This document shows positions 5,994 to 29,365 of a stretch of 64,000 bases of DNA, one piece after another. Every line of letters begins with the position of its first letter. Position 1 is the stretch's first letter. The stretch lies in IMG/VR virus record IMGVR_UViG_3300028048_000100, positions 33,214 through 97,213 of that record. One strand, given 5' to 3'. This DNA comes from a virus. Lineage: Duplodnaviria > Heunggongvirae > Uroviricota > Caudoviricetes. Made by a program: the position numbers and the translations under genes. The notes under the pieces were generated by a model. It saw only the letters and a program-made list of their open reading frames with translations, was not told where the DNA came from and made no database searches.

Positions 5994-6554
5994 TTATCTC
6001 CAAAATTTATACGTATAGTCGAACCCTTGAATACTCCAAATCTGCCCATCTTTGTACTTGTATTCGGCCAATTTAAGCAATTGATCTGGATCTCCTTCTA
6101 GTTTCATTCGACTCATGCGATATAACCGCTGATTAGTCGTCTCCTTGTCTAATCCACCGAGTTCTTTGATGTATGGGCCTACCTTGAGATAGGTTAGCAT
6201 CTGGACCCAGTACGAAGCCCCATGATCAATCATATCCTGAACATCCTTACGTCCTGAGTAGACTGCAATGTTCATCCACTTACCCCTCTCTGTGGTCCAG
6301 TCACAATAATATCCGACTATCTTAGCCAATCCATCGTAATCGGCATCTCCGCCCATTAGGCACAGACAAGTACAGGCGCTGTTGGCATCAAGCAAACGAT
6401 ACAACTCTTGTTTGGTTAGTTCTGTACCAACGTCCTCCCAGAGGAACTTACTGTGACAATCCGGACAGTGAATCGGACAGTTGCTGAGGTTGATACATAA
6501 TGTCACCTCATCTGGTATCTCCGAGAATGTTACTTGGTAGTTATAGTATTTCAT
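5994..6554 (-). CDS. nrdG: radical-SAM activase, NrdG-like (anaerobic RNR activating protein family)
   Basis: N-terminal CxxxCxxC (NCPIHCPDCH) followed by GGD (LMGGDADYDG) and 'IAVYSGRK', mirroring E. coli/T4 NrdG. ~186 aa. Its start overlaps the first IQD-family gene stop (ATGA). Confidence 0.5.
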   Translation of the reverse strand: MKYYNYQVTFSEIPDEVTLCINLSNCPIHCPDCHSKFLWEDVGTELTKQELYRLLDANSACTCLCLMGGDADYDGLAKIVGYYCDWTTERGKWMNIAVYSGRKDVQDMIDHGASYWVQMLTYLKVGPYIKELGGLDKETTNQRLYRMSRMKLEGDPDQLLKLAEYKYKDGQIWSIQGFDYTYKFWR

Positions 6555-6838
6555 AAGTATAGTGGTGTTATATTGTAATCTTTAAATTCTTCATAGATTT
6601 TCTGACATGCTAATTGAAACTCTTCACTCGGATCATCTGGATTATGAAGGTTGGGCACATATACATAAAACTCAGATGGGGTGCAATTTGGGAATCTCTT
6701 CTGAATAGCTAAAAATTCGAATCTCCAGTCCCTCATGACTAGGTCGCATCGCAATCGTTTCTGTCTAACGAACGTATCGAACAGCTTGGCTGCGTCAGTC
6801 ACTTGTTTCAATATATCCTCATCGCACGTCTGTATCAT
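6551..6838 (-). CDS. IQD-leader paralog family protein (variant leader MIQTCDEDIL)
   Basis: N-term MIQTCDEDILKQV; overlaps its neighbours. Confidence 0.6.
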   Translation of the reverse strand: MIQTCDEDILKQVTDAAKLFDTFVRQKRLRCDLVMRDWRFEFLAIQKRFPNCTPSEFYVYVPNLHNPDDPSEEFQLACQKIYEEFKDYNITPLYL

Positions 6839-7136
6839 ATAAAAAATATACTTCAGTTATCTTACGGATGTTAAATATATGGCGTCGGATTAAGTCAAAC
6901 ATGAAGCTCTTAGGTAATCCTCTGGGAGTTGCATAAGTCTGCCATTCGAACTGGAACTGACTGTCCGGATTGCGATTGGGAACCAAGTACTGGAACACCA
7001 AGCTACCCCCTGCGCCTTCCCATTTAGACTCAACGTGATCCTTATACTGCATTTCAAACGATCGCTTTAAGTTATCCTCAAACTCGATCTCGTGCATGTT
7101 ACCCTTCACAACCTTTGTGTCATCATCTTGTATCAT
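6819..7136 (-). CDS. IQD-leader paralog family protein
   Basis: N-term MIQDDDTKVVKGN; the promoter-like motif abuts its ATG. Confidence 0.7.
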   Translation of the reverse strand: MIQDDDTKVVKGNMHEIEFEDNLKRSFEMQYKDHVESKWEGAGGSLVFQYLVPNRNPDSQFQFEWQTYATPRGLPKSFMFDLIRRHIFNIRKITEVYFLYDTDVR

Positions 7137-7167
7137 ATATACAAAGTATCTGGGATATCTTTAGTGC
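7137..7167 (-). promoter_or_regulatory. conserved phage promoter-like motif (short variant)
   Basis: The minus strand reads GCACTAAAGATATCccagatactttGTATAT directly fused to ATGATACAAGAT of 6819-7136. Confidence 0.45.
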
Positions 7168-7352
7168 TTCTTCATTGCTTTTGCAAACATAGGTGCTAAA
7201 CTGGCAGGTACAACGACGTAACTAGATGATCCATACTTTCGTCTTCGCTCTTCAATAGCGTTAGCGGTATTTAGTATCTTGTCAAAGAGCTGACGAGACT
7301 GAATCATCTTGTCTTCTCGATCTAGTACTTGTTCATCACTTGCTTGTATCAT
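7161..7352 (-). CDS. IQD-leader paralog family protein (63 aa)
   Basis: N-term MIQASDEQVLDRE. Confidence 0.6.
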   Translation of the reverse strand: MIQASDEQVLDREDKMIQSRQLFDKILNTANAIEERRRKYGSSSYVVVPASLAPMFAKAMKKH

Positions 7353-8002
7353 AGTACAAATGTTTGAGGGCTGTTTGCAATCATTCGTATTCGAGAGATC
7401 TCTTCCACAACAGCAGAGGCATCTTCGTTGTGGTCCAACCCACTAAATCGTGCTGTTAATTCGTCTTCATATCGATCCGATTTGATACTCAATCGCTCAC
7501 CAAGGACTTTGAATTTGACATAGAAGTTGTGTGAGCTCGCATATGATCCGTCCCAAAACTCATGGTCAACCTTTTCTGGGTCCATGATCTCAACGTTGTA
7601 TCCCGAACGAATCACAGTAGACTCGCGTAGGCCCCTCATTCGCGTCTCATCATCAGCCTCATACGTGGTGTACTCATATTTCATATATAAGGGCTCCGGT
7701 AGATGTTCACTAATCCACTTGAGGCCTTTTTCCATATACTCGTTAACGATATTTGCATTCACATATACCGGGTATCCACACATATTATCATACACGTATT
7801 TCGTATACGAGCGACGATTGATGCTTTTGATACTAAACCTCATCATCATCTCGGATATGTGGTTGTCGCGATTGAAGCTTCGATCTAACGCATTTATCTT
7901 ACCGGCGCCTGTGAAGAAGTCGTATATTAAACGAGCCACCTCTCGTCTCATATGTGTACGAGACACTTCAAAAATTACTTTTTCATCACTGTCCTGTATC
8001 AT
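7349..8002 (-). CDS. IQD-leader paralog family protein (217 aa)
   Basis: N-term MIQDSDEKVIFEV; 4-nt overlap with its neighbours. Confidence 0.7.
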   Translation of the reverse strand: MIQDSDEKVIFEVSRTHMRREVARLIYDFFTGAGKINALDRSFNRDNHISEMMMRFSIKSINRRSYTKYVYDNMCGYPVYVNANIVNEYMEKGLKWISEHLPEPLYMKYEYTTYEADDETRMRGLRESTVIRSGYNVEIMDPEKVDHEFWDGSYASSHNFYVKFKVLGERLSIKSDRYEDELTARFSGLDHNEDASAVVEEISRIRMIANSPQTFVL

Positions 8003-8423
8003 CGTATATTGCTTCTAATCCATATTCTACACTATCCATCCACTGTATATTTACACCAAACTGCCTCAGTTTCAATGCTAAGTTGTTCTTAGTCTTCCAG
8101 ACTAATCTCTCTTCTTTTATAACACTCCCATCATCTCGAACACCTACACATACAAGTTGCTCCTCAGTATCTTTTATCATTTCCTCATACTCATACTTAT
8201 AGAACTTGACCGATATCACATGATCGTTGATGTAATAATGATCTCCTCCAGGAGGTACTACGAGTATTGGTTCGCTGAATATGACTCGGAATAGACCAGT
8301 CACTTCAAAGTACTTATCGTTACTATTCCGATTCGCATAGGAATGGTTAAATGCATCCAAAATGATCTGATCCACTAATCGATCAGTCTTACCTATTACT
8401 ATGTCATCATCATCTTGGATCAT
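7986..8423 (-). CDS. IQD-leader paralog family protein
   Basis: N-term MIQDDDDIVIGKT. Confidence 0.7.
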   Translation of the reverse strand: MIQDDDDIVIGKTDRLVDQIILDAFNHSYANRNSNDKYFEVTGLFRVIFSEPILVVPPGGDHYYINDHVISVKFYKYEYEEMIKDTEEQLVCVGVRDDGSVIKEERLVWKTKNNLALKLRQFGVNIQWMDSVEYGLEAIYDDTGQ

Positions 8424-8737
8424 TAGATTGCTTGGTATACGCTTGAAGGAATTGTTAGCTTATGCGGAAAGGTAATCTCTCCTTTATCTCGTTCCAATAA
8501 CAATGAGAACCCAACTAATGCGAACACGTCAGTTACCGTCTCTCTCACTCGTATAACATGCTCTTTCCAAATAGCTTCTCCTTTCTTCCTAATGTAATAT
8601 GTGAAGTCCCAGCAGCCGTTGCATCTATTCACGTAGTTGGTCGCTTTCTGTAACTTACAAGCTTCCCTTACATCCTCGGCGAAATGAGAATAGTTAGTTA
8701 CTTGATCTATTACTATACTATCATCGTCCTGTATCAT
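8423..8737 (-). CDS. IQD-leader paralog family protein
   Basis: N-term MIQDDDSIVIDQV; 1-nt overlap with the downstream gene. Confidence 0.7.
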   Translation of the reverse strand: MIQDDDSIVIDQVTNYSHFAEDVREACKLQKATNYVNRCNGCWDFTYYIRKKGEAIWKEHVIRVRETVTDVFALVGFSLLLERDKGEITFPHKLTIPSSVYQAI

Positions 8738-9095
8738 TGTGTAAGTTTATCTGTATCTTTACAAACATTTCGTCTCTCTCATGTGGAGAAGCGTACTTAG
8801 CCATCTCTATGACTGTCTTATTGTACTCTAACATGTCCTGTATTTCAGACATCCTCTTGCGCACGTATACTTTGAAGTCGTCATTGATGTTCGATTTAAC
8901 CCACTGAGGACTAAAATGGATTGTGTGCGGACGTTTACGACCACCATACGTTATAAGATCAACGCTAAAAGTCCAACTAAGCTCTCTTCCATAATTATAG
9001 CGGATAGCATTCTCAAGCTCTTGATTGAGTAAGCTCTCGAACTCAGCACCTTCTCGTACTTTCTTCTCTACTATGTTATCATCATCTTGTATCAT
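8721..9095 (-). CDS. IQD-leader paralog family protein
   Basis: N-term MIQDDDNIVEKKV. Confidence 0.7.
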   Translation of the reverse strand: MIQDDDNIVEKKVREGAEFESLLNQELENAIRYNYGRELSWTFSVDLITYGGRKRPHTIHFSPQWVKSNINDDFKVYVRKRMSEIQDMLEYNKTVIEMAKYASPHERDEMFVKIQINLHNDTGR

Positions 9096-9517
9096 TTCGG
9101 CATTACTATTCCAACGGGCTTGATGAGATATGACGGTACTTTGAAGTATGGCGGCGTTTTACTTGGTTCTTTTTTATCGAGATTATTTACTATAAAATCT
9201 ACAATACAGGCCGCTAATCTCTTCGGTAATGCAGATTTCCCTAGTTCGGACCATGCTATCTCCATGGTTAATTCCTTTTCAGTAGTGTCATAGTTACAGC
9301 CCCGAAAACGCACAGGCTCGTCAAACACTAATTTGATTTTTGCCTTCACATGCGCCTGATATTTCATATCACCATCAGAGTAGCGTTGGTGTATGATACT
9401 CCGTCCCCGAAGGTCTATTGACTTCTGGTATAACTCTTCACACATATGTTCTAAGTGCCACCGGTTCATTTCCTTGGCAGACTTAGCCATTACTTGCTTG
9501 TCGTCGTCTTGTATCAT
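9092..9517 (-). CDS. IQD-leader paralog family protein
   Basis: N-term MIQDDDKQVMAKS; ATGA coupling. Confidence 0.7.
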   Translation of the reverse strand: MIQDDDKQVMAKSAKEMNRWHLEHMCEELYQKSIDLRGRSIIHQRYSDGDMKYQAHVKAKIKLVFDEPVRFRGCNYDTTEKELTMEIAWSELGKSALPKRLAACIVDFIVNNLDKKEPSKTPPYFKVPSYLIKPVGIVMPK

Positions 9518-10125
9518 TTCACTACGTAGTGTATTGTCTGATACGGTAGTTCTCGTATCGGAGACAGTTTTGTTTCGAATGGGATAGCATCGTTAAAGAG
9601 CACCGATAGAGCAACCTCAGAGTCTGCTATGTTCTCAGTAAGCTTGATAACGAATTGTATGCTATGTACTATATATGGATCAGTCAACTTTAATCCATCG
9701 CTGGTGAGTCCAAACTTATCAGACATGAAGCCTACGATAACACTGCCGGTCTCTTGCTTAAGGTTAGTGTCGTATATCCCAGTCTGATTGACGTTCTTTA
9801 TATCACTATCCACGCGGGTGAGAGTCTCGCCATAGATAGCATTCATGTCGCGAATGAACTCTGCAATCTTACCCACGAGGTTGCGATACACATCGTTCAT
9901 GTAAAATATAGGTTTGCGCTTTTGGGGGTTGGCTACAAACTTATCCGTAAACTTGAGTATGTACCGCCCGACATCACTACCCTCCTGTTGAAAAGCCTCA
10001 ACGCGGTCAAAGTCAAACACACCATCGAACGAAGTCTTGAACTGCTCAGTGATGCGGTGACAAACCCAGTATGGGTTATTCTGGAGATTGCGCTGCTCAA
10101 CAATATTATCGCTATCCTGGATCAT
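9514..10125 (-). CDS. IQD-leader paralog family protein (203 aa)
   Basis: N-term MIQDSDNIVEQRN; the promoter motif abuts its ATG. Confidence 0.7.
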   Translation of the reverse strand: MIQDSDNIVEQRNLQNNPYWVCHRITEQFKTSFDGVFDFDRVEAFQQEGSDVGRYILKFTDKFVANPQKRKPIFYMNDVYRNLVGKIAEFIRDMNAIYGETLTRVDSDIKNVNQTGIYDTNLKQETGSVIVGFMSDKFGLTSDGLKLTDPYIVHSIQFVIKLTENIADSEVALSVLFNDAIPFETKLSPIRELPYQTIHYVVK

Positions 10126-10159
10126 ATATCTATATCCAAAGAATGCAAAAATCTTTAGT
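10126..10159 (-). promoter_or_regulatory. conserved phage promoter-like motif
   Basis: The minus strand reads CACTAAAGATTTTTGcattctttGGATATAGATAT directly fused to ATGATCCAGGAT of 9514-10125. Confidence 0.5.
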
Positions 10160-10575
10160 TATAATCGTGCTTCATAACGGTGCCAAGGATCCAGCACACT
10201 GACTCTTTCGATTAACACGTTGTGCATATCATGTTCTTCCACAGGGTATTTCTCCTGTATCCGTTTTAAGAGCTGTATATAAATTGTGTCGATGAGGCGG
10301 ATATAGTTATCAGCTGAAAACTTGCGGACCTGCTTGTTGAACTGGAATTGTTTCGGGATGTTCACAGTTACATACCCTTTGTCTTCAAATTCTAAATCAG
10401 GATCGCGATCAACAGTATAGTCCGTGATGATAACAACGTCTACCTTCTTGCCCACAATAGCCATTGAGAACACACTTTTCACAGATAGGTCCGCATGTTC
10501 CTGGATCTCTTTGCATATGCGCATGTATTGCTCTAAATTACGCCCTAATACTTCATTGTCGTCATTTTGAATCAT
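10159..10575 (-). CDS. IQD-leader paralog family protein
   Basis: N-term MIQNDDNEVLGRN. Confidence 0.7.
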   Translation of the reverse strand: MIQNDDNEVLGRNLEQYMRICKEIQEHADLSVKSVFSMAIVGKKVDVVIITDYTVDRDPDLEFEDKGYVTVNIPKQFQFNKQVRKFSADNYIRLIDTIYIQLLKRIQEKYPVEEHDMHNVLIERVSVLDPWHRYEARL

Positions 10576-11146
10576 GTGAAACTCCTGTATAACTAAAGTG
10601 GAATGAATCGTTAGTTTCTTTTATGGTGCCGTTCTCAAGATCGGCTTGATCAATGCCGAGCTTATCGAGCATATCTAACATACCAGCGGCATTCACACCA
10701 GCAGTGTCGTAGATATCGCTAAGATGATTTGCTAATAAATGGGTTTTGGTCACCGATGGACCTTGACGCCACAATAACATACTCTTGATAGACCTGAAGT
10801 CCTCTAAGTTGTAGTGACGTTTACTCATATAAGCAACAATTTTATCCAATATCACAGAAGCCCAGGAGGTCTCATTTGCAGATACTGTCCAGTCCATATG
10901 AACCCATAGATCATCTGGTATAGTTACATAGATGCTCTCATCATTCCGATCCTTAGTCTTAAATGATATCTTGATGCTATCATACGGCCCATACATCTCA
11001 CTACGAGGATCGCCGGGATTGCTTCTTTTTACCTCTGTAAGCTTACTCCACAATATCGGCATATACCGCATAATCTCGGTGGTAATCTTGAGGTGATTCT
11101 CATCTACGCCAGATTTTAATATTTTCTCATCCGACTCTTGTATCAT
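10562..11146 (-). CDS. IQD-leader paralog family protein (194 aa)
   Basis: N-term MIQESDEKILKSG. Confidence 0.7.
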   Translation of the reverse strand: MIQESDEKILKSGVDENHLKITTEIMRYMPILWSKLTEVKRSNPGDPRSEMYGPYDSIKISFKTKDRNDESIYVTIPDDLWVHMDWTVSANETSWASVILDKIVAYMSKRHYNLEDFRSIKSMLLWRQGPSVTKTHLLANHLSDIYDTAGVNAAGMLDMLDKLGIDQADLENGTIKETNDSFHFSYTGVSHDSK

Positions 11147-11780: not shown

Positions 11781-12236
11781 TTACTTAAGGTTGAATCGTT
11801 TGAGGTATTCTGAACTCAGCGGATAAAACACACCGTCTTCACCCATGTAGTGACTGGCGCCGAGCACAACCATCAAGGACATGTTATCTCCATCCTTGCA
11901 ATACTCAGGAAAGTATAGCGTTATGGGTTTGTTGATGCCATGAGCGTAGCCAATCTCCCAAACCGTACCTGATGTGCAATAGTGACTGCCGTACATAGCA
12001 ATAACCATGTCACACGAGTCAAGCTCCTGCACATCCTTATCTCGGACTGCTTTAGCCCATTGGTAGTTAGAGAAGTTCCAAGTGCCGTCTGGTTTTTGAA
12101 AATCTCCAGGAACCTTGAACTCCATTGGGATGTATAACTTTGCGTTCGGATACTTCGTACGCACTATCTCAATCATGTGTTTAAGGGCTTCGCGCTCACG
12201 AGGCTGCGAAAATGGCCCGGCAATGTATATCTTCAT
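11781..12236 (-). CDS. nucleoside 2-deoxyribosyltransferase (NDT) family protein
   Basis: 'KIYIAGPF' N-terminal motif and 'TSGTVWEIGYAHGINKPI', matching the NDT catalytic Glu region. The most likely start is MIMKIY at 12236; the track's earlier Met (12260) reads through the promoter motif. Confidence 0.55.
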   Translation of the reverse strand: MKIYIAGPFSQPREREALKHMIEIVRTKYPNAKLYIPMEFKVPGDFQKPDGTWNFSNYQWAKAVRDKDVQELDSCDMVIAMYGSHYCTSGTVWEIGYAHGINKPITLYFPEYCKDGDNMSLMVVLGASHYMGEDGVFYPLSSEYLKRFNLK

Positions 12237-12242
12237 AATCAT

Positions 12243-12276
12243 ATATCTATATATGCACAAATTAGTAATCTTTAGA
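12243..12276 (-). promoter_or_regulatory. conserved phage promoter-like motif (variant)
   Basis: The minus strand reads CTAAAGATTACtaatttgtgcATATATAGATAT followed by ATGATTATG. Confidence 0.45.
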
Positions 12277-12819
12277 AGTAAACGGCTGATAAATTAGTTC
12301 ATTCTTATGTTTCTTGATGTAATTGAATATGTTTTCTAAGATTTTCTGCTTACCAAACTCTATTGGAAATTCATACTCATCCTCTTTTTTACCAACTGAT
12401 CTGAACGCATCTCTCTGCTTGTTCAGGGCAAAGTTTCGCGTGCTCTCCCGGTCTCTTAGAGACATATTAGTTAGTATTATCCCAAATTTCACCGAGCTTG
12501 GTTCTGTGTAGCCATACCTTGGATCCCTATTGATCCCGCGCACAATCAGGTTAATCATGCAGTCTGAGAATTTGATAGCATTAGTATATGGTCCAAGCAT
12601 TCCACTAGATTGTATTGTTAGTTCAATTTGCCGGCCTATGATCGCATCCAATACTCTAATGGAGAATCCTTCTAACCACTCAGTATAAGTCATATCGGGC
12701 AAGTCTTTAATACCAGATGTATCCGGCCAGCCACTAGACCAGTTACTTTCCCGTTCTTTTGGGATATATAGTGTGTCTTTGGTCTTCTCCAATATTTCGT
12801 TGTCGCTATCTTGTATCAT
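12262..12819 (-). CDS. IQD-leader paralog family protein (185 aa)
   Basis: N-term MIQDSDNEILEKT. Confidence 0.7.
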   Translation of the reverse strand: MIQDSDNEILEKTKDTLYIPKERESNWSSGWPDTSGIKDLPDMTYTEWLEGFSIRVLDAIIGRQIELTIQSSGMLGPYTNAIKFSDCMINLIVRGINRDPRYGYTEPSSVKFGIILTNMSLRDRESTRNFALNKQRDAFRSVGKKEDEYEFPIEFGKQKILENIFNYIKKHKNELIYQPFTSKDY

Positions 12820-13175
12820 CTTACTTTCAGCAAATTTATTTCATACAAGCCATATTTTTCGTATGGATATTCTCGCCCGATTTTTCTGTCTTGTTCGAAT
12901 ATTCGGTCCACTATAAATGCAATAGTGTTAATCACATTCTCTTCTAACGAGAGCTTCATATCATAGTGCCAATCTTCTGGAATGTTAAGTCTGAGAAAAT
13001 CAGGATGTCCATTATAGTAGACTACTCGAAGCTGCTTATATTCAGTCTTACCATACACCTCTAGATCTTTGCCCACAACTCTAACATATGCCGGAAGTTC
13101 TTTGGTGATCTCCCGGTATAATGTTATGCCCGTAACAGATTTGGACAATACTTCACTGTCGTCGTCTTGAATCAT
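12816..13175 (-). CDS. IQD-leader paralog family protein
   Basis: N-term MIQDDDSEVLSKS; ATGA overlap with the upstream gene, checked by hand. Confidence 0.7.
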   Translation of the reverse strand: MIQDDDSEVLSKSVTGITLYREITKELPAYVRVVGKDLEVYGKTEYKQLRVVYYNGHPDFLRLNIPEDWHYDMKLSLEENVINTIAFIVDRIFEQDRKIGREYPYEKYGLYEINLLKVR

Positions 13176-21283: not shown

Positions 21284-21690
21284 GGACTCTTTGGGAAGCG
21301 ATTAACGATAATGACGAAACTGTGATTCATAACAGTAAACTCATCACAGACGTAGACACCCAACGCTATAAGCTGATGAAGCTATTAACGGAGTTCTTTG
21401 GAGTTAAGGAGTTTATACCTCACAAGAACTATCACGGCACGCTGATTATCAAGAGAACTAATCATCTCAAGATAAACGAATTTGCCAAGCAATTAGAGAA
21501 GCAACCTTTTGTTACTATGACCAAAGTAGATCGAGGGGATAAGTTAGCGAGTTATGGTTCAACTCTATATGTGAATAGTAATCTTGGTATATTGTGGTAT
21601 TTCACTTTCAATAAGGTGCTGAATGCCATCACCTCGGTACATGATAGTGAAGGTGTTCACATAAATCTATTTAACTACATGAAACAATGA
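21280..21690 (+). CDS. IQD-leader paralog family protein, long-leader form
   Basis: N-term MRTLWEAINDNDETVIHNS; ATGA coupling. Confidence 0.75.
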   Translation: MRTLWEAINDNDETVIHNSKLITDVDTQRYKLMKLLTEFFGVKEFIPHKNYHGTLIIKRTNHLKINEFAKQLEKQPFVTMTKVDRGDKLASYGSTLYVNSNLGILWYFTFNKVLNAITSVHDSEGVHINLFNYMKQ

Positions 21691-22172: not shown

Positions 22173-22666
22173 GAACACTCTGGGAAGCCATACAAAGTAG
22201 CGACGATGACATAGCTGCAGCATCAAGCAAAAGCATGGTGCCGTATCGCATAGTAGATATATTCTGCGATGTATTTGCACACATGTATCGTGATAAGGAT
22301 TCAAAATACGATCAAGGAAGTGATTATGTAGCTGGGCGTATACCAGTGTCTAACTATGACAAAATGGATAAGTATAAGACTGAGACTGAGCTGAAGAAGG
22401 ATCTACGTAAGTTCTGTAATAGTGTTCGATCTGAGTTTGCTCCGAAGGTGCTCATCCAGATGAAGACTAAACGAGATCAGATACTCAGAGTGGTAGATCG
22501 AAAAGACTATCGCATAATCATTTCTATTGGTAGCGCCACATATGGGCTAACAGTTCAGTTTGACACAAATCCGACGGCGAAGGGCGAGATTCCGGAGGTT
22601 AATTATATCCGTGTGATCTCGGGCAATCCTGATCTCATAACCGCATTCCATAATAAAGTTAAATGA
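22169..22666 (+). CDS. IQD-leader paralog family protein, long-leader form
   Basis: N-term MRTLWEAIQSSDDDIAAAS. Confidence 0.75.
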   Translation: MRTLWEAIQSSDDDIAAASSKSMVPYRIVDIFCDVFAHMYRDKDSKYDQGSDYVAGRIPVSNYDKMDKYKTETELKKDLRKFCNSVRSEFAPKVLIQMKTKRDQILRVVDRKDYRIIISIGSATYGLTVQFDTNPTAKGEIPEVNYIRVISGNPDLITAFHNKVK

Positions 22667-22667
22667 T

Positions 22668-23144
22668 ATGAGAACTCTTTGGGAAGCCATACAAGACAAC
22701 GATACTAAAATAGATGCGATATATGAAGAGTCTCGTTTGTTGCAAGAGATAGCAGATGGACTCAAGAAGCATTTCAGCAACTACTTGGAAAACGACTCCA
22801 AGATTAAGAAGGTCGGATCTTGGTGCCCACTTGGTAGGGTAGACGATGACTTGTACAACAAGGAAAGTATAAAGGATACCGAGGACTTCATGATTAAAAC
22901 TATCAAACAGATGCACAGGGATATCAAAAAGATACTAAAGAAGACGCTGGTTGATATTGAAACTTCAGTAGACAACTTCGGAGAGAATCACATCAAGCAC
23001 TACAATCTTACATTGTACATATCTGGATGTGAAACAAAGCACCTGATTCAATTTGTATTACACTCTAAGAGAAATAAATTCGGCGAAGAGGTGGAATACA
23101 TTGCTATTTGGACAAAAGATACTGAATTAGCCGATTTGATATGA
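22668..23144 (+). CDS. IQD-leader paralog family protein, long-leader form
   Basis: N-term MRTLWEAIQDNDTKIDAIY. Confidence 0.75.
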   Translation: MRTLWEAIQDNDTKIDAIYEESRLLQEIADGLKKHFSNYLENDSKIKKVGSWCPLGRVDDDLYNKESIKDTEDFMIKTIKQMHRDIKKILKKTLVDIETSVDNFGENHIKHYNLTLYISGCETKHLIQFVLHSKRNKFGEEVEYIAIWTKDTELADLI

Positions 23145-23602
23145 GAACACTCTGGGAAGCAATAAATGATAACGACGATAAGGTACTAGACGGAGCTGAT
23201 CTAGCCATGCTTGGTGCAGATGTTAAACGCGCTATTGAAAGCGTATATGGGCAGCTGTCACCAGATGAGGGTCGCCATGCTCGTCCTAAGTTAGTAGGTG
23301 AAGTAGGAGAGAAATACTTCCAGGATTACGAGTACAGCAAGAAATCCGGTAAGATGACTTATATTCATACTGATGGCACTGTTGTTCGAATCATGAAGAA
23401 TGCCCGAAGCAAAGGCATAGACGTGAAGATGGAGAAGTCAGATCACCACTACAGTGAAGTGGATGAACGCAAATACTATATGACATTCACTAGAAATGAT
23501 GTGAAGATAGAATTAACAATCATCGCCGACTCAACACGTAAATATGGAGTAGATACCATTGGCGTGTGGGCTGATGATGATGTCAAAAAATACCTACAAT
23601 AA
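23141..23602 (+). CDS. IQD-leader paralog family protein, long-leader form
   Basis: N-term MRTLWEAINDNDDKVLDGA. Confidence 0.75.
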   Translation: MRTLWEAINDNDDKVLDGADLAMLGADVKRAIESVYGQLSPDEGRHARPKLVGEVGEKYFQDYEYSKKSGKMTYIHTDGTVVRIMKNARSKGIDVKMEKSDHHYSEVDERKYYMTFTRNDVKIELTIIADSTRKYGVDTIGVWADDDVKKYLQ

Positions 23603-25218
23603 TGGGATGCGCACTTAAACGAATATTACAGTTTCAGCAGGCGGTGAAGTTCGGGCCAATCCAAGCGATCGATGACAAGAACGTCGACGTGGCGGCTACA
23701 TGCATGTACTCATGGAGCTCTGATGGTGTATGCTGGACGTCTTGGACTACTTATGAGAACTACTTGAAGATTGCTAAGAACATCGAAAGTGATTTCTTCT
23801 TACGTGTACTACTGTTCGGCGGATTTGACCGTATCTCACTCAACGGATTGTTCACTAAGTGCTACACAATTGTTTTGGATAGTACTAATCCGTTCCTTAC
23901 TGATTTCTGTGGCAATGAGAATCTGTTCAATCCATACTGCAACTTAGACTGCGCGCTCCTACTACAAGAGCAGTTAGCTAACTCAATCATATGTATGTTC
24001 GGCATCCCTATCTACTACTTCCGCGTTGCCCCAGATGTGACTACTGCAGACTATACTTTTAAGGAGTTTGTGCTGCATAATGTGGTGGACGTTAAGCAAA
24101 TCAAGCTGATGCTACAAGACGGTCAGATGCCAAGTTCTAACCCAAGGTTCACAGAGCTTGATTTTGATTGGCAAACGGATTGGGAAGTAGAAGTGGGCAA
24201 GAGACAGTTCGCTCAAGCCTTTGGTGACACCGCGTTTCCAAAACAGCGTGACTTCATATACATCCCAATGATGAAACGTATGTGGAGCGTGAACTCAGCT
24301 TACGATGAGAAAAACGAAGGACTGTTGTGGAGACCAACCACATGGAAATTAGCATTGGTTAAGTATAACGAACTAACCAACGTAAACACAGACAACGTGA
24401 GTGATGCAATAGACTCATGGTTGACAAACAAATACGAAGATACTTTCGGCAAATTAGAAGACACAGAGCAAAAACGCGAAAGTGGTACAGCTCAACTTTC
24501 CGCTCCAACGCATGCGTCAACTAACTTGTTTAATATATTTATGGAAGACGCAGTGAGACAAGCTTATACTAAAAATGACATAGCAATACTGGCCAAGCAA
24601 TACAATCAAAAGAGTAATGTCATCGCCAGAAATATATATAGATTCCTTAACGAGAATGGCCAGGTGACTTATCAAGAGGGTTACTGTGGCGAGAGCGGTA
24701 TGCTAAGTTTTATCTTGGAGACACCAGGCAGCACTGAAACAGCCCGCGAGATAGTACATATGGGTAATGTAGGAGTTCAGTTGGAGTTCCTACTTGGCAG
24801 TAGCATGTTCAACCTGAAATTCGGTGGATGCACTGCTGAATTAGAGCCATTCAATACATACCTTGTTGTATGCCAATGGAATCGTGCTACGTTCTCCACT
24901 GAGCTCAAGGTGTTTAAGTACACACATGAAGGTGATATTCCAATCTATAAGTTACGTCCGGAGATGTATTGGTTTGACCTAGACAATCCTATTTGTGACG
25001 CTGTCGGTGAATATAACAATGATTTCCGCGTAGAGTCTAAACAGCCATGTTATATATCTGGCTATCCTTGCATGATGACTAATATCAAGCTGTATAACCG
25101 TTATATGGGTGAAGATGCTACTAAGGAAGCGATGAAATATCTGACACGAAATGAGAGCTGTGTATTCTCCGATCAAGCCCGCCCAATAGATTCCGGGCAA
25201 GGATTTGCAGTAAGGTAA
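23602..25218 (+). CDS. hypothetical protein (538 aa), possibly structural
   Basis: Long ORF with a 1-nt overlap to the preceding gene. Confidence 0.6.
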   Translation: MGCALKRILQFQQAVKFGPIQAIDDKNVDVAATCMYSWSSDGVCWTSWTTYENYLKIAKNIESDFFLRVLLFGGFDRISLNGLFTKCYTIVLDSTNPFLTDFCGNENLFNPYCNLDCALLLQEQLANSIICMFGIPIYYFRVAPDVTTADYTFKEFVLHNVVDVKQIKLMLQDGQMPSSNPRFTELDFDWQTDWEVEVGKRQFAQAFGDTAFPKQRDFIYIPMMKRMWSVNSAYDEKNEGLLWRPTTWKLALVKYNELTNVNTDNVSDAIDSWLTNKYEDTFGKLEDTEQKRESGTAQLSAPTHASTNLFNIFMEDAVRQAYTKNDIAILAKQYNQKSNVIARNIYRFLNENGQVTYQEGYCGESGMLSFILETPGSTETAREIVHMGNVGVQLEFLLGSSMFNLKFGGCTAELEPFNTYLVVCQWNRATFSTELKVFKYTHEGDIPIYKLRPEMYWFDLDNPICDAVGEYNNDFRVESKQPCYISGYPCMMTNIKLYNRYMGEDATKEAMKYLTRNESCVFSDQARPIDSGQGFAVR

Positions 25219-25578
25219 TTAGAATATGAGTATATTTTCTACACCGGTTAATTTGATGTAGTTATCACGAATCTCATCTACAAATTGGCTTGCCAAACTC
25301 TCTGTACTTTGAGTGATTGGGAAGCTAATTTTTTTGCTCATGTGATATGGAGCACGAACAAGGCATACACCTGCATTTGGATCACAGAGTACTGCATTGA
25401 CATGGAAGTACTCAGCCATAAACGCCAGGAAACTCGAATGTCTCAATTGAACTGTAGTTTCTGAATGCTCCCTGAGGTTTTTATCTATAGCATCTGTAGC
25501 GAGGTTGATTAGTTTATCTCGCCAATGCAGATCAAAGTACTGTCGACGCTCTATTGCTATGTCACTGTCCTGGATCAT
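25219..25578 (-). CDS. IQD-leader paralog family protein
   Basis: N-term MIQDSDIAIERRQ. Confidence 0.7.
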   Translation of the reverse strand: MIQDSDIAIERRQYFDLHWRDKLINLATDAIDKNLREHSETTVQLRHSSFLAFMAEYFHVNAVLCDPNAGVCLVRAPYHMSKKISFPITQSTESLASQFVDEIRDNYIKLTGVENILIF

Positions 25579-25892
25579 TTAGGCACTACTATCTTTGTTG
25601 TTTTTAGCTTTTCAAATTCTTTGTATGCAAATTCTTTAAACATCTCCAGATCACCATGTCCTCTGTAGTTTTCGTAATCGATCTTTAGTGTGACTTTGTA
25701 CGGGATATTCTTATGTACATCATCATTATATGCATATATAACAATATACAAGTATTTAGGCACATCTATAGAGCATGCCTCAAGATCTTGAAATACACCG
25801 ATCTTACGTTGGACCTCTTCCGCAGCCTTCTCTGCACACAACGTCCAGAATTTATGACCAACCAATATGTCTTGATCAGTGTCTTGTATCAT
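25575..25892 (-). CDS. IQD-leader paralog family protein
   Basis: MIQDTDQDILVGH at an internal Met. The ORF track extends to 25928, which would give ATGA coupling; which start is used is uncertain. Confidence 0.6.
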   Translation of the reverse strand: MIQDTDQDILVGHKFWTLCAEKAAEEVQRKIGVFQDLEACSIDVPKYLYIVIYAYNDDVHKNIPYKVTLKIDYENYRGHGDLEMFKEFAYKEFEKLKTTKIVVPK

Positions 25893-25924
25893 TTCTTTGC
25901 AATTACTTGTTTTCTTGTTTCGTA

Positions 25925-26323
25925 TCAATCTGGTGAGAGTATGAAGGTTTTTGTCGGGTCCTTTATCATTGTTGGATATAAGGACGCAAAGTCATTTACA
26001 CCCTTAAAAACAACCTCGGTGTATGCAAAATCTACGATGTTCTTATTCCAAGGGACATCGGTGATTTTATCGTATAGCTGTTGAACTATTTGGTCAATCA
26101 GAACATCTAGACCAAATGTTACCCAGTTTAGTGGGAATGTGATGGATGCTTGTTTATGCGATGCAGTCGATCGATCACCAAATACCACCTGCTCTTCAAT
26201 CACTAGACCCATGCTGGTTGGGTTCTCGATGATCCAACCATATAGAAACTCACGCAGTTTGTGATCCCGCATCATCAGCAAGTCGCTTTTGCTCAATATG
26301 CCTTCGTCGGTATCTTGTATCAT
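25925..26323 (-). CDS. IQD-leader paralog family protein
   Basis: N-term MIQDTDEGILSKS. Confidence 0.7.
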   Translation of the reverse strand: MIQDTDEGILSKSDLLMMRDHKLREFLYGWIIENPTSMGLVIEEQVVFGDRSTASHKQASITFPLNWVTFGLDVLIDQIVQQLYDKITDVPWNKNIVDFAYTEVVFKGVNDFASLYPTMIKDPTKTFILSPD

Positions 26324-26676
26324 GAGATATTGTATTTAATCACAGAGTTAACACCCATCTCTTTCTTAGCCCGGTAATGTTCCTCCCTGTCTTTAAGGAG
26401 CTTGCGTATTTTGTTTGGATCCGTTGCGTCAAATAAACCACCTTTATAGAAATGGGAGGAGGCCCGGACCACATCTATGTCAAAGTAGTTCAACAGCTTT
26501 ATGGTCCAATCGTCCATTTTGCCGTTCTCAAAATTATGCTCAAGCTCCATCACACGCGATGAGTAGCTAATATTAGCATATTCTACGATTTTTGCCACAG
26601 CCTCCTCACGCATCCGTTCTTGGAAGAGAATACGGCTGTTGTCATCTAATATTTTTGAATCATCATCTTGAATCAT
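26320..26676 (-). CDS. IQD-leader paralog family protein
   Basis: N-term MIQDDDSKILDDN. Confidence 0.7.
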   Translation of the reverse strand: MIQDDDSKILDDNSRILFQERMREEAVAKIVEYANISYSSRVMELEHNFENGKMDDWTIKLLNYFDIDVVRASSHFYKGGLFDATDPNKIRKLLKDREEHYRAKKEMGVNSVIKYNIS

Positions 26677-27011
26677 TAGTCATATTTAAAATCAAACAAC
26701 ACATCAATAGCTCCGCAACCAGCTGCAGCATTCATCACCTGGGTTGCAAATTTTTTAGCGCATTCTTCTTCACTTAGATCAAAATCATAGTAAATATTTT
26801 CTCTCCTGAGGAGTTTGAACCCATTAGAGTAGCAACCTAGAGGAGCCGGAGGATTGGGTACAAAGTATCTCACGTCTGCCGCACTAAATAAGAGATTAGA
26901 CTTCTCATGATGTAGCCGATGGAAGTGAACAGCATGTTCGTATGCCCGCTGGTATATCTTATATTGATCACCTCGAGCATTAGCAATACTTTTGTCCGAA
27001 TCTTGTATCAT
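26676..27011 (-). CDS. IQD-leader paralog family protein
   Basis: N-term MIQDSDKSIANAR; the promoter motif abuts its ATG. Confidence 0.7.
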   Translation of the reverse strand: MIQDSDKSIANARGDQYKIYQRAYEHAVHFHRLHHEKSNLLFSAADVRYFVPNPPAPLGCYSNGFKLLRRENIYYDFDLSEEECAKKFATQVMNAAAGCGAIDVLFDFKYD

Positions 27012-27045
27012 GTATCTATATACAAAGAAAACGAAAAACTTTAGG
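27012..27045 (-). promoter_or_regulatory. conserved phage promoter-like motif
   Basis: The minus strand reads CCTAAAGTTTTTCgttttctttGTATATAGATAC directly fused to ATGATACAAGAT. Confidence 0.5.
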
Positions 27046-27334
27046 AAAGAATTAAACAGAGATTGTTTGTTCGAACTAATTCGTCTATCTCATCGACAGT
27101 CAAGTCAAATTGTTCATTTAGAGATTTAATGATGAAGTCACACATCTTATTAACTAAGTCATCTCCAGCAACTACACTGTACAACTTGTTTTTAATCATA
27201 GACATCTCGAAGGTTATCTTACTCCCAGACCTACGTTCGTCGAGCCGATTGAACTCCACGAAATCCTTAACGATGTTACGCAATGCTAGACCATTACATC
27301 GATCTAAAACCTGTTTTTCACCATCCTGGATCAT
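27041..27334 (-). CDS. IQD-leader paralog family protein (variant MIQDGEKQVL)
   Basis: N-term MIQDGEKQVLDRC. Confidence 0.65.
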   Translation of the reverse strand: MIQDGEKQVLDRCNGLALRNIVKDFVEFNRLDERRSGSKITFEMSMIKNKLYSVVAGDDLVNKMCDFIIKSLNEQFDLTVDEIDELVRTNNLCLILS

Positions 27335-27723
27335 TTGTTTTTATAATAATTCCACAAGTCATCAGTTAGTGGCTGAAATTGGTGATAATCGTACGAATGT
27401 TCTTCTATCTGTCGCATCACCTCCCTAAATACATAATCAGCACACATATCGGCTGATTCTGTTGTGCCATTTAAAAACACTTGGTGACTTTGGTTGAATG
27501 TAATAGTCAAAGGACTCTTACTACGAAATACGACCCATATGTCCACTTGAAATGGAAATCTATCTGTTCGTTGCAGTACGCCTTTTTCAGTCTCACATGG
27601 ATCGAAACGAGAGTCCATGTAACGCTGTGCTATCCAATAATTCGCTTGCATACGAAACGAATCTTTAAGAGTCTCAGCCCAAGCCATGAACTCATTAGGT
27701 ATGTTATCTACGTCTTGGATCAT
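27331..27723 (-). CDS. IQD-leader paralog family protein
   Basis: Internal Met gives MIQDVDNIPNEF. The track ORF begins 7 codons earlier, at 27744. Confidence 0.6.
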   Translation of the reverse strand: MIQDVDNIPNEFMAWAETLKDSFRMQANYWIAQRYMDSRFDPCETEKGVLQRTDRFPFQVDIWVVFRSKSPLTITFNQSHQVFLNGTTESADMCADYVFREVMRQIEEHSYDYHQFQPLTDDLWNYYKNK

Positions 27724-28162
27724 AGTTCCTGAGATACTTTTCAATTATGTTCGTTATAGCTGCACTTTTATCCATCGCATCTCTGTTGATGGATTCAAGT
27801 GTGAACTCATTACTTCTTATTTCAGCAGCCAAATTAGCAGCTTTGACAAAATATTCCAGTTGGCCTTGATTGTACATAGATACTGTTTCACTGAGGGATC
27901 CTGAGTCTATGTATGAGTCGCCGTATTTAGTTGTCACATATTTGGGGTAGTATATATGCCCTCCGAACATGCGCGGATACTCTTTAATTGAACTGAACGT
28001 CTCAAAAACCACACAATCGTATCCAGCCTTGTCCTTGAATATCCATCTATTTCCAGATTCGGTCATCTCATATTCAAAGCCATGGCTGAAAAGGCTCTCA
28101 TTAGTTATCGGTAAGTTATCGATAATGTCCTGTTCAACTTGCTCATCAGTATCTTGTATCAT
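27704..28162 (-). CDS. IQD-leader paralog family protein (152 aa); intact copy of a tandem duplicate
   Basis: N-term MIQDTDEQVEQDIIDNLPITNESLF. The body is homologous to the split ORFs at 28167-28581. Confidence 0.7.
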   Translation of the reverse strand: MIQDTDEQVEQDIIDNLPITNESLFSHGFEYEMTESGNRWIFKDKAGYDCVVFETFSSIKEYPRMFGGHIYYPKYVTTKYGDSYIDSGSLSETVSMYNQGQLEYFVKAANLAAEIRSNEFTLESINRDAMDKSAAITNIIEKYLRNYDPRRR

Positions 28163-28166
28163 AACG

Positions 28167-28581
28167 TCACCCTTTCCAAAGGTAATCGGTTATTTCCTCG
28201 TTTAACTCCTTACTCTCTTGGGCAATGTACATTCTCAGTTTAGCAGCACGATGAGCTAATCTGATAAAACGCTCAAGTTGACCCTTCGTATATAAGTATG
28301 TTTTTCTAGTGTCTGATTTGACTGACCCTGGGCCTATCGAATGCTGCAACTGAGGGTAGGGGGATATTACATACGAGTTTACGTGGATAACCGTTTATCA
28401 AGCTGTCTCGTATGAGAAGTACATTCTCGTACCCAGATACATCTTTATAGACCCAACAGTTTTCAGGATTGGTGTTTGATATTCCTTTAAAATACAACCC
28501 ATTCCTGAAAAGATCGGCGTTTGTTATAGGCAGGTTATCTATAACATCTTTTTCCACTTGTTCATCACTTGCTTGTATCAT
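28167..28581 (-). pseudogene. frameshifted tandem duplicate of the 27704-28162 gene (IQD-leader family)
   Basis: ORF 28306-28581 (MIQASDEQVEKDVIDNLPITNADLF…GYPRKL) aligns to the N-terminal half of 27704-28162. ORF 28167-28349, in another frame (…GQLERFIRLAHRAAKLR), aligns to the C-terminal half (GQLEYFVKAANLAAEIR). The two frames overlap at 28306-28349. Confidence 0.5.
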
Positions 28582-28934
28582 AACACCACCTCCGTTACTA
28601 ATACCCTCATCTTACCACGCATATGACTATATCCTCGATTGATTCCACGGACATCGTATTGTCTGTTATATCGAGACCGAACATGCACTGTTTTGCCTAT
28701 GAGTACTATATCTTTTCTCGACATCCCTATAGGAGTCTCGTCAAAAATCACATCATCAGGATCCGCGTACACAGCCCAGGCTATAGGTGTCGATTGGAGA
28801 TCTACATATTGCTTATCTGATGCAAGCATATCCACAACCTCCATACCCAAGCTGTCGCGCAAGAACTCTTCAGTGAGGCGAAACATCTTACTATCTCGTT
28901 CTTCTAATATGTCCTTGTCATTTTGCTGAATCAT
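28578..28934 (-). CDS. IQD-leader paralog family protein (variant MIQQNDKDIL)
   Basis: N-term MIQQNDKDILEER. Confidence 0.65.
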   Translation of the reverse strand: MIQQNDKDILEERDSKMFRLTEEFLRDSLGMEVVDMLASDKQYVDLQSTPIAWAVYADPDDVIFDETPIGMSRKDIVLIGKTVHVRSRYNRQYDVRGINRGYSHMRGKMRVLVTEVVL

Positions 28935-29365
28935 ATCATATATCGTTCGCCGCTTTTAAGACGTGCCTTGACTGAGTAGTTTCCCAAATCAGTGTCATAA
29001 CCCCATTCCATAATGAAGTCCATGATTTTCTGAAAGTAGAACTCTGTGAGTGCATTAAGTTCTAATTTGTACATCTTGCGCTCCCGGTTAGTGTCTTGGA
29101 ATGAGATCTTGAACTGGAGAGGGCCGGTAATGTGGTGAAGCTCTTCATCAGTGATGCGAATCCCAGCATACTTATAGTTGACGTGATAGGTGATCTTGAC
29201 TTTTAGAGGCCATTTGCACCCACGTTTAGTTATGCCCCACTTGACATCGTCTTTAGTATTGTAAAACGACCCGAGTTCGCTTTTCAGTTGGCGTTTAAAG
29301 TTCTTGTAACCTTTCAATGCGCTAGCTGAATCTTTCAATAAGATATTGTCGTCTCCGGTAATCAT
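28931..29365 (-). CDS. IQD-leader paralog family protein (variant MITGDDNILL)
   Basis: N-term MITGDDNILLKDS; ATGA overlap with the upstream gene. Confidence 0.6.
   Translation of the reverse strand: MITGDDNILLKDSASALKGYKNFKRQLKSELGSFYNTKDDVKWGITKRGCKWPLKVKITYHVNYKYAGIRITDEELHHITGPLQFKISFQDTNRERKMYKLELNALTEFYFQKIMDFIMEWGYDTDLGNYSVKARLKSGERYMI

Follow-up and report, generated by a model that had tools for sequence, protein, structure and literature searches.

The leader genes of the window

The stretch analysed here (hereafter the window) comprises 64,000 nucleotides (nt) of a tailed-phage genome, positions 33,214 to 97,213 of IMG/VR record IMGVR_UViG_3300028048_000100, and carries a family of genes whose products begin with the same short leader peptide. 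A six-frame listing of open reading frames (ORFs) and motif scans identify 36 such genes: 25 of a short form, nine of a long form and two variants. An earlier note, made from the sequence alone, had described about 38 members of 60-301 amino acids (aa). The family and its positions are borne out, while the count falls to 36 and the sizes become 63-301 aa, with one variant of 366 aa. The genes sum to 16,695 nt, or 26% of the window, which agrees with the quarter estimated in that note. Short forms start M-I-Q-[D]-x-D-x-x-[VI]-[L] and all lie on the minus strand (6551-11146, 12262-14077 and 25219-29365). Long forms start MR[TP]LWEAIQDxDxx[VI]; six are on the plus strand (20708-23602) and three on the minus strand (14164, 15273 and 38244), confirming that the extra prefix is present on every plus-strand copy and on a few minus-strand copies. 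The variant at 61362-61943 has the leader MRSLLDIYEAIHMDDNDVL; the one at 59873-60973 starts MRSLFEIYEAM... and carries an internal WDKIEDDDITMV. Membership of a known annotated family was checked against Pfam and PHROG, in which none of the 36 has a significant match.

The members are listed below and are named hereafter by their first coordinate. "Scan" denotes ORF listing plus motif scan, "strict" ORF listing plus a match to the strict DNA patterns described in the next section, and a slash in a peptide a putative cleavage site.

6551-6838, minus: short form, 95 aa, MIQTCDEDIL (scan)
6819-7136, minus: short form, 105 aa, MIQDDDTKVV (strict)
7161-7352, minus: short form, 63 aa, MIQASDEQVL (scan)
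7349-8002, minus: short form, 217 aa, MIQDSDEKVI (strict)
7986-8423, minus: short form, 145 aa, MIQDDDDIVI (strict)
8423-8737, minus: short form, 104 aa, MIQDDDSIVI (strict)
8721-9095, minus: short form, 124 aa, MIQDDDNIVE (strict)
9092-9517, minus: short form, 141 aa, MIQDDDKQVM (strict)
9514-10125, minus: short form, 203 aa, MIQDSDNIVE; first gene behind the P1 element at 10126-10160
10159-10575, minus: short form, 138 aa, MIQNDDNEVL; body weakly similar to 12816
10562-11146, minus: short form, 194 aa, MIQESDEKIL (scan)
12262-12819, minus: short form, 185 aa, MIQDSDNEIL (strict)
12816-13175, minus: short form, 119 aa, MIQDDDSEVL; AlphaFold model of low confidence
13172-14077, minus: short form, 301 aa, MIQDSDFSVL; first gene behind the P1 element at 14099-14133
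25219-25578, minus: short form, 119 aa, MIQDSDIAIE (strict)
25575-25892, minus: short form, 105 aa, MIQDTDQDIL (strict)
25925-26323, minus: short form, 132 aa, MIQDTDEGIL (strict)
26320-26676, minus: short form, 118 aa, MIQDDDSKIL (strict)
26676-27011, minus: short form, 111 aa, MIQDSDKSIA; immediately behind the P1 element at 27012-27046
27041-27334, minus: short form, 97 aa, MIQDGEKQVL (scan)
27331-27723, minus: short form, 130 aa, MIQDVDNIPN (motif scan and strict DNA pattern)
27704-28162, minus: short form, 152 aa, MIQDTDEQVE; paralogue of 28306
28306-28581, minus: short form, 91 aa, MIQASDEQVE; N-terminal half of a frameshift-split paralogue of 27704
28578-28934, minus: short form, 118 aa, MIQQNDKDIL (scan)
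28931-29365, minus: divergent short form, 144 aa, MITGDDNILL (scan)
14164-14739, minus: long form, 191 aa, MRPLWE/AIQDNDSEVL; ends the TerL-gp2 operon; orthologue in a sister phage
15273-15779, minus: long form, 168 aa, MRPLWE/AIQDNDKEVD; 4-nt overlap with the end of the gp2 gene
20708-21283, plus: long form, 191 aa, opens the tandem run of six behind the T4_baseplate gene; two sister-phage orthologues
21280-21690, plus: long form, 136 aa, MRTLWE/AINDNDETVI (strict)
21687-22172, plus: long form, 161 aa (strict)
22169-22666, plus: long form, 165 aa; alignable with 22668
22668-23144, plus: long form, 158 aa; AlphaFold model described below
23141-23602, plus: long form, 153 aa; its stop codon and the start of the neck-like gene 23602-25218 overlap
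38244-38834, minus: long form, 196 aa; ends the operon of the RimK-like gene and 38831, beside a head-completion gene
61362-61943, minus: extended variant, 193 aa, MRSLLDIYE/AIHMDDNDVLDK (motif scan, leader alignment)
59873-60973, minus: variant, 366 aa, MRSLFEIYE/AMINE/S... plus the internal motif given above (motif scan)

Selection acts on the leader peptide

The strict degenerate DNA patterns match 17 short-form starts and all nine long-form starts; no match occurs in 100 dinucleotide-preserving shuffles, so the family is far from a chance occurrence. Within the leader, isoleucine is encoded by ATA (15), ATC (5) or ATT (5), glutamine by CAA (16) or CAG (8), and the aspartate at position 6 by GAT (14) or GAC (10). 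The DNA 5' of the ATG is not conserved among members, most of which begin in an ATGA overlap of stop and start. Because the codons vary synonymously and the upstream DNA is unconserved, selection acts on the leader as a peptide and not as DNA, as the earlier note had concluded from its own codon comparisons.

The converse proposal is that the conserved start reflects a constraint on nucleic acid or translation initiation, an AT-rich unstructured start coupled through ATGA to the gene before it. It accommodates the overlapping stops of most members, the AT-richness of ATG ATA CAA GAT, and the fact that no Shine-Dalgarno-like sequence was seen by eye 5' of the starts inspected. It is almost certainly wrong, however: most changes fall on synonymous third positions and leave the amino acids as they are, residues 9-10 ([VI][L]) are conserved through varied codons, the long form keeps its Trp, Glu and Ala, and sister phages keep the peptide with different DNA. 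Nucleotide-level constraint was rejected on the codon evidence.

A distant relative of T4

Judged by its genes, the window belongs to a jumbo phage of the T4 superfamily, distant from T4. About 30% identity links its TerL to the TerL proteins of Tenacibaculum phage PTm1 and Sphingomonas phage PAU. The window also encodes a gp2 DNA end protector, head-completion, neck-like and T4_baseplate proteins, as well as SSB, an exonuclease, a sigma factor and helicases. In the upstream flank are nucleotide-metabolism genes and one for a family-B DNA polymerase. The genome is also present in the Logan assemblies of SRR8442993 and SRR7971123. The portal protein of a sister phage is a Pfam Portal_T4 member with more than 3,000 homologues, the best 120 of which are 66-99% identical and lie on contigs of up to 226 kb. 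Because the portal has so many homologues, the lineage is a large one, common in metagenomes. The closest phages by portal in the phage collection are LR756500 (42%, an unannotated metagenomic huge phage) and PAU (36%), followed by PTm1 and the Lak phages. PAU in fact infects a Sphingobacterium, one of the Bacteroidetes (PMC3738902), and Bacteroidetes are probably the hosts of the clade as well. On one sister contig (L001, 8148-10591), QueD-, QueE- and FolE2-like genes, assigned by eye, stand beside a leader gene, a set that suggests DNA modification of the 7-deazaguanine type; PAU DNA is also reported to be modified (PMC5646251).

How far the leader itself extends depends on the search. A word-indexed protein search with a 40-aa leader alignment returned nothing, which reflects a limit of the index and not rarity, as the window proteins are in that collection; the full-length 20708 protein retrieved only one 95%-identical copy in the same kind of search. 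An exhaustive HMMER search of 1.84 billion representative proteins with a long-leader profile gave 19 matches, namely eight window proteins, about nine from sister phages and two repeat artefacts. Scans at the DNA level located the long leader on a single IMG/VR contig and in a single metagenome (Ga0256405); 185,579 genomes gave no match. By these searches the exact long leader is limited to this clade. Megablast of the arrays against 50,697 phage records gave no match. Short-form patterns gave only single, chance-level matches in IMG/VR, and short-form arrays were not found elsewhere in IMG/VR, in about 45 kb of sister-phage DNA, or in PAU. LR756500 and PTm1, which encode a portal, a protease-scaffold fusion and a major capsid protein (MCP), have no leader-gene arrays.

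Some members have orthologues in the sister phages: P0009 is 54% identical to 14164, and P0015 and P0017 are 30-35% identical to 20708. Since such orthologues exist, the bodies behind the leader are conserved between phages.

The bodies behind the leader

Leader-trimmed bodies were compared by BLASTP, by phmmer against reversed and shuffled decoys, and by iterated profiles. Most pairs are at decoy level by all three procedures, and the profiles recruited no further members. The sole clearly related pair is 27704 and 28306, recent duplicates (E 1e-11); 12816 with 10159 and 22169 with 22668 lie marginally over the best decoy. When leaders are included and close variants used, the last two align over about 157 aa at 27-29% identity. 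These are the only pairs above decoys when bodies are tested for homology along their full length. The statement in the earlier note that the bodies have nothing in common beyond the leader therefore holds for most pairs and fails for these, a few of which are paralogous along their length. A body motif noticed by eye (a strand, then N-I-P) occurs in 15 of the 36 members, against 8.9 ± 2.5 in shuffles, an enrichment too weak to be used.

One locus in the third short-form array is a split copy of 27704-28162, interrupted by a frameshift, and may be a pseudogene or a decaying recent duplicate. It consists of 28306-28581 and of the following fragment:

28167-28349, minus: fragmentary ORF of 60 aa that matches the C-terminal portion of 27704 (E 3e-6); the other half of the split copy

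Structure gives a less clear-cut picture. Aligned with MAFFT, the long forms look colinear, as do several short forms, and in nearly all members an amphipathic helix, judged by eye, continues the leader to about residue 35-40. The AlphaFold model of 22668, built from a paralogue alignment (predicted local distance difference test, pLDDT, 70.6; predicted template modelling score, pTM, 0.64), shows a single helix at residues 4-36, which includes the leader, followed by an alpha+beta body for which no fold neighbour was found. The model of the short form 12816 is of low confidence (pLDDT 50). A shared fold too diverged for detection by sequence may thus be compatible with the data. In a sister phage, a long leader (contig L042, 534-1148) heads a DUF285 repeat domain (E 3e-38); because of this arrangement, the leader is joined to at least some genuinely unrelated bodies. 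In the window, the 852-aa product of 216-2774 (plus strand) contains what resemble, by eye, leucine-rich repeats of the BspA/DUF285 type.

These observations bear on the simplest explanation of the family, that it is an ordinary, fast-evolving set of tandem paralogues with a common fold, in which the leader is the most constrained part, the start of a helix, and addresses nothing. Tandem arrays with 4-nt overlaps are typical of duplication, a recent duplicate pair and a split copy are present, some pairs can be aligned from end to end with about 27% identity, and the colinear alignments, the helix seen by eye and the modelled helix 4-36 would all follow. I nevertheless consider it rather unlikely. 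Conservation is lopsided, with 9-17 nearly invariant residues in front of bodies at decoy level; a single leader precedes bodies of 63-366 aa, and the DUF285 repeat that it precedes in a sister phage is unrelated to the alpha+beta model. Furthermore, the two modules of the leader described below occur separately and together, indicating a portable unit, and mere paralogy leaves the matches to leaders of T4 and PAU head proteins unexplained.

Two modules and their T4 counterparts

The leader resolves into module A, M-[KR]-x-L-x-E-x-[LI]-x-E, and module B, I-[QN]-D-x-D-x-x-[VI]-[L]. Module A heads a further set of window genes, found by motif scan:

38831-39229, minus: module A only, resembling the T4 signal discussed below, 132 aa, MKSLSEYLTE/A
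43300-43971, minus: module-A type, 223 aa, MRSLLTYLE/C, with a second, internal MKDLKDFLKE/SLLVE/S
50532-50822, minus: module A only, 96 aa, MKGLSEKLNE/S
50833-51441, minus: module A only, 202 aa, MKDLKDMLIE/SLNE/A, acidic and helical by eye
52064-52408, minus: module A only, 114 aa, MKDLGEMLKE/Q
52411-52680, minus: module A only, 89 aa, MKSLEETLKE/S

In a relative whose portal is 86% identical, the genes flanking the portal start MRSLLEVINES, MKDLKEFLLES, MKSLKEYLNES and MKSLVNYINEN. Bridging leaders combine the modules: MRSLYSILE/SINDDDEKV, MRSLYDSILE/AIQDSDERV, MRTLLEVIYE/AIQDNDSKV, MRSLYDAIKE/SINDDDDQAI and MRSLLDIYE/AIHMDDNDVL. In the leader alignment, the long form of the window is a bridging leader minus four residues (MRTLW----EAIQD), and [LI]-x-E/[AS] directly precedes module B in every long or extended leader (LWE/AIQD, ILE/AIQD, IYE/AIQD, ILE/SIND, IKE/SIND).

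Module A recalls the capsid-targeting sequence (CTS) of T4, MKTYQEFIAE (PMC8442874). The T4 prohead protease gp21 cuts after L/I-X-E; CTS residues 4 and 7 serve targeting and residues 8 and 10 processing, and Asp at position 10 blocks processing while leaving targeting unaffected (PMC9026906). The internal proteins of T-even phages are highly diverse and have the CTS alone in common (PMC3012670). The likeness to the T4 proteins that carry it (IPI, IPII, IPIII and Alt) lies in a short N-terminal leader on otherwise diverse proteins of a T4-superfamily phage, and in the architecture M-[KR]-[ST]-hydrophobic-x-E-x-[LI]-x-[ED] with an L/I-x-E prohead-protease site at its end. MKSLSEYLTE/A, MKGLSEKLNE/S and MKSLKEYLNE/S keep M1, K2, [ST]3, the hydrophobic residue 4, E6, [LI]8 and E10, some leaders, such as the last, also have an aromatic residue 7, and a CTS-like site ends the long, extended and A-type leaders (LWE/A, IYE/A, YLTE/A, KLNE/S and others). 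Aligned in this way, module A corresponds to the T4 CTS position by position (MKSLKEYLNE/S and MKTYQEFIAE/A). There are also differences. A T-even phage has a handful of such genes, the window about 36 plus at least six of the A type in 64 kb; position 10 of the long form is Asp, and its cut would probably fall after residue 6 (LWE/A); beyond the cut site comes a conserved module B; the targeting half is missing from 25 members; and the proteins are acidic, not basic.

Module B has a T4 counterpart of its own. The prohead-core protein gp67, encoded in T4 right after the portal gene, starts MEGLIEAIKSND (MEGLIE/AIKSNDLVAA) and is identical in register to MRTLWEAIQDND (MRTLWE/AIQDND) at 7 of 12 positions, the full window leader being of the type MRTLWE/AIQDNDDKVL. 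Among 2,147 background ORF N-termini, gp67 alone scores 7, and the next best scores 6. T4 gp67 is a single, essential core protein of 80 aa whose acidic tail is degraded by gp21. By contrast, similarity to it is confined here to 12-18 residues with a weak profile E-value, and the window encodes dozens of proteins of 63-366 aa, larger than the 65-80 aa or so of the gp67 type and without acidic tails. Leader genes lie on both sides of the portal in sister phages, with no protease gene nearby; the window holds no portal gene.

The next gene to 43300-43971 is 43971-44597 (minus), which encodes an extremely acidic, Ser/Asp-rich protein of 208 aa; 43300-43971 itself has two CTS-like motifs, N-terminal MRSLLTYLE and internal MKDLKDFLKESLLVES; and 51446-52051 (minus) has an internal MRSLVEFLNESMSE. 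With their several LxE sites, these products are candidates for scaffold or core proteins.

The leader family of phage PAU

The cultured relative PAU offers a further comparison. Its gene order is T4-like, running from portal (gp147) to protease (gp151) and scaffold (gp152) and on to the MCP (gp156), and 19 of its genes, clustered round this module, start MK[TSG][LI]xxLYE, often followed by KLNE/[AS]. The set includes the scaffold and four of the five genes annotated as internal capsid proteins (hypergeometric p = 4e-6). PAU gp149, of 65 aa, occupies the genomic position of gp67 and starts MKTLTQLYE/SVIDDSDKEFL, that is, module A followed by module B. Leader profiles built from the clade only rank gp149 and the scaffold second and third of 510 PAU ORFs (p = 0.004). 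The PAU MCP is trimmed from 585 to 520 residues, a loss of about 65 (PMC5646251), and on the PAU sequence a loss of this length puts the cut at an L-M-E site or beside it. The likeness thus comprises a Bacteroidetes-host relative and a family of 19 leaders of the form MK[TSG][LI]xxLYE[AS]; the leader sequence itself differs, and neither module-B-only genes nor long tandem arrays were found in PAU. Among the relatives checked, the leader phenomenon is shared only by PAU and this clade.

The PAU leader family is visible in the GenBank record, and no paper describing it was found in the literature searched. The same record (JQ362498) also annotates a 'capsid decoration protein (banana)' and, for gp1 and gp10, an 'internal capsid vertex protein (mango)'; neither gp1 nor gp10 has the MKT..LYE leader. 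Inner structures beneath the vertices are mentioned by Hua et al. 2017, who deferred their description.

The two forms lie in different operons

Every one of the nine long forms shares an operon with structural or packaging genes, and neighbouring genes usually overlap by 4 nt. The plus-strand operon runs from the T4_baseplate gene through 20281 and the six tandem long forms to the neck-like gene 23602. On the minus strand, one operon comprises TerL, 16408, gp2, 15273, 14739 and 14164, and another the RimK-like gene, 38831 of the A type and 38244. These operons are preceded by ATTATATA-type elements, and a similar element, TTATTATACATATA, lies 5' of the portal gene on contig L052. The short-form operons are headed by a different element of 35 nt, P1, of sequence CACTAAAGATTTCCTCTTTCTTTGTATATAGATAT (CTAAAGATTT...TATAGATAT), which occurs seven times in the window and not once in 20 shuffles. 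All copies are promoter-like:

10126-10160, minus: P1, heads a short-form operon
12243-12277, minus: P1, 5' of the nucleoside deoxyribosyltransferase gene
14099-14133, minus: P1, consensus copy, heads the 13172-12262 short forms
27012-27046, minus: P1, heads the 26676-25219 short forms
30140-30174, minus: P1, heads the HExxH gene 29362-30120 and the short forms downstream of it
55238-55272, plus: P1
55693-55727, plus: P1

The P1 consensus is CACTAAAGATTTCC.TTT.TTTGTATATAGATAT, and an extra copy is found in L052 just upstream of 18930. The best copies contain an imperfect hairpin, GGAATC-ACTAAA-GATTTCC, then a T run just 5' of TATATAGATAT; hairpin and T run could make the element a terminator-promoter cassette. 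In PAU, head genes are preceded by TATACATAT(A) and non-structural blocks by CTGAAACTTTC-N-GTAGTATAAT, which resembles P1. By analogy, I infer that the P1 class is early or middle. One P1 operon runs into an NrdG-like gene and another copy precedes the deoxyribosyltransferase gene. Judged by these elements, the short forms appear to be regulated differently from the long forms.

Several other genes of these operons can be named. Genes for an NrdG-like radical-SAM activase (5994-6554, minus; assigned by eye), a nucleoside 2-deoxyribosyltransferase (11781-12239, minus; Pfam) and a phosphoribosyltransferase (4425-4982, minus; Pfam) stand among the short-form arrays or are co-transcribed with them. 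The P1 operon that runs into the 25219-29365 array opens with 29362-30120 (minus), which encodes a 252-aa protein with a metalloprotease-like HEAMH (HExxH) motif and no Pfam match. The operon of 38831 and 38244 is headed by a RimK/ATP-grasp-like ligase gene (39229-40896, minus; Pfam RimK and GSH-S_ATP).

An alternative reading is that module B is a docking or function motif used in the infected cell and not in the capsid. The short forms would then be early or middle host-takeover or anti-defence proteins that bind a common partner through MIQDxDxxVL and the following helix, the long forms a subset that is also injected; the family would be an effector repertoire, and head targeting would concern only the minority that bears module A. 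Several features suit this reading: module A and the L-x-E site are missing from the short forms; P1 is common to nucleotide-metabolism genes and resembles the non-structural element of PAU; the proteins are acidic, unlike the internal proteins of T4; module B is strongly conserved either side of the predicted cut, beyond the needs of cleavage; and the failure to find short-form arrays in IMG/VR, sister-phage DNA or PAU fits a fast arms-race repertoire. Yet the partner is hypothetical, the timing of P1 rests on analogy, and module B is also found in PAU gp149 and T4 gp67, both of them prohead-core proteins; nor does any body have a recognisable anti-defence domain by Pfam, PHROG or fold comparison. 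I regard this reading as having a minority chance, though a real one.

A prohead address as the preferred explanation

The explanation I prefer, with chances that I would put at about even, is that the leader is this lineage's version of the T4-type prohead-core address, carried by an expanded family of internal-head or ejected proteins and by propeptide-less derivatives of them. Module A would combine a CTS with the prohead-protease site, and the mature protein would begin with the gp67-like module B. Proteins of the long form and of the A type would be made together with the structural proteins, bind the scaffolding core through the leader and be enclosed in the prohead, where the protease would clip the long form at MR[TP]LWE/AIQD.... 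The clipped proteins would then stay in the head, be ejected or be degraded, forming a greatly enlarged analogue of the T-even internal proteins. The short forms start at the predicted N-terminus of the processed long form, with Met replacing Ala, and would be derivatives that have dispensed with the propeptide. They might join the core through module B and the helix or, about equally likely, act unpackaged in the infected cell. Because the targeting and cleaved part of the leader is absent from them and they are regulated differently, packaging of the short forms is doubtful, and the address reading is strongest for the long and A-type forms. The sequences themselves establish the anatomy of the leader, the constraint on its peptide, the T4-type setting, the different gene contexts of the two forms and the parallels in PAU and T4, from which targeting, cleavage, expression timing and packaging are inferred.

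The likeness to the T4 CTS had already been suggested in the earlier note, and it remains the best-supported direction, given a T4-related phage, the match to CTS, gp21 site and gp67, the PAU family and the DUF285 fusion; it becomes doubtful for the 25 short forms. The parallel extends, more loosely, to the SPN3US/phiKZ lineage. There, paralogues gp53 and gp54 are only 34% identical overall and have an identical 15-residue N-terminus with protease motifs, and such propeptides have been proposed to target proteins into the prohead (PMC5694885). That lineage differs in its A/S-x-E motif, its propeptides of mostly more than 100 residues and its far smaller sets of paralogues.

Several points weigh against a prohead address. 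The short forms, the majority of the family, have neither equivalents of CTS residues 1-6 nor an L/I-x-E, hence none of the T4 targeting residues and no cleavage site of that kind, so that the resemblance to the CTS fails for all 25. I-Q-D is the one place in them where a cut might fall, and in T4 processing is prevented by Asp at position 10 of the CTS (PMC9026906). Their P1 context would suit early or middle cytoplasmic proteins better than head proteins. The median isoelectric point is 5.6 for short forms and 6.6 for long forms, most members being acidic, while the internal proteins of T4 are highly basic (PMC8442874). Tblastn with T4 gp21, gp22 and gp23 and with the PAU protease, scaffold and MCP found no protease, scaffold or MCP in the window or the clade loci searched, and the portal neighbourhood of one relative has no protease and no MCP. 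If the model of 22668 is a guide, the leader may be part of a long N-terminal fold helix. The gp67 comparison was post hoc; the match of the leader profiles to PAU gp149 is weak (E about 0.6-1.5); and 'internal capsid protein' in PAU, the only indirect support for leader-bearing proteins being present in heads, is a GenBank annotation whose experimental basis was not found.

Prohead address and cellular docking could also be combined. Module B with its helix would be a hitherto unrecognised, autonomous N-terminal address or docking module, and one large effector repertoire would reach the cell in two ways. The long forms, synthesized late and with a propeptide of six residues, would be packed, clipped at LWE/A and injected with the DNA; the short forms would be made early with the 'mature' N-terminus, and both sets would meet the same partner in the newly infected cell. 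Such dual delivery, derived from the head-core signal, is decidedly unlikely.

Recognition of the leader by some other enzyme, as a degron or as a substrate tag for the HExxH protein or the RimK-like ligase, is very improbable. The HExxH gene does head one short-form operon and the RimK-like gene the operon of 38831 and 38244, but most arrays have neither enzyme, the HExxH protein matches nothing in Pfam, RimK-type ligases act on C-termini, and no evidence specific to the idea was obtained. The encapsulin cargo-loading peptide, the other comparison drawn in the earlier note, was discarded: there is no encapsulin-like shell gene among the annotated genes of the window, and the context is that of a tailed-phage head.

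Novelty and significance

The earlier note knew of no described phage family of this appearance, which overstates the case. The CTS on diverse T-even internal proteins is established (PMC3012670), and a comparable leader family can be read from the GenBank record of PAU. What appears to be new is the scale, about 36 genes and at least six more of the A type in 64 kb; a leader built of two modules, with a mature N-terminus like that of gp67; an abundant propeptide-less form with its own regulation; and the reach of a T4-type head signal into a large clade of jumbo phages that are uncultured and probably have Bacteroidetes hosts.

The internal proteins packaged in T-even heads are injected with the DNA and act as first-line counter-defence, as IPI* does against GmrSD. 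The 36 or so leader-tagged, fast-diverging small proteins, which fill about a quarter of a 64-kb region, may likewise be a large and mostly unexplored pool of effectors. If the comparisons hold, a signal of the T4 CTS/gp67 type has been conserved out to distant jumbo phages, and the rule M[KR]xLxExLxE with LxE/[AS] would predict internal head proteins in metagenomic phages. The leader could serve as a portable tag for loading the heads of this phage group, and the propeptide-less short forms would provide a natural experiment in which targeting and cleavage are separated from the role of module B.

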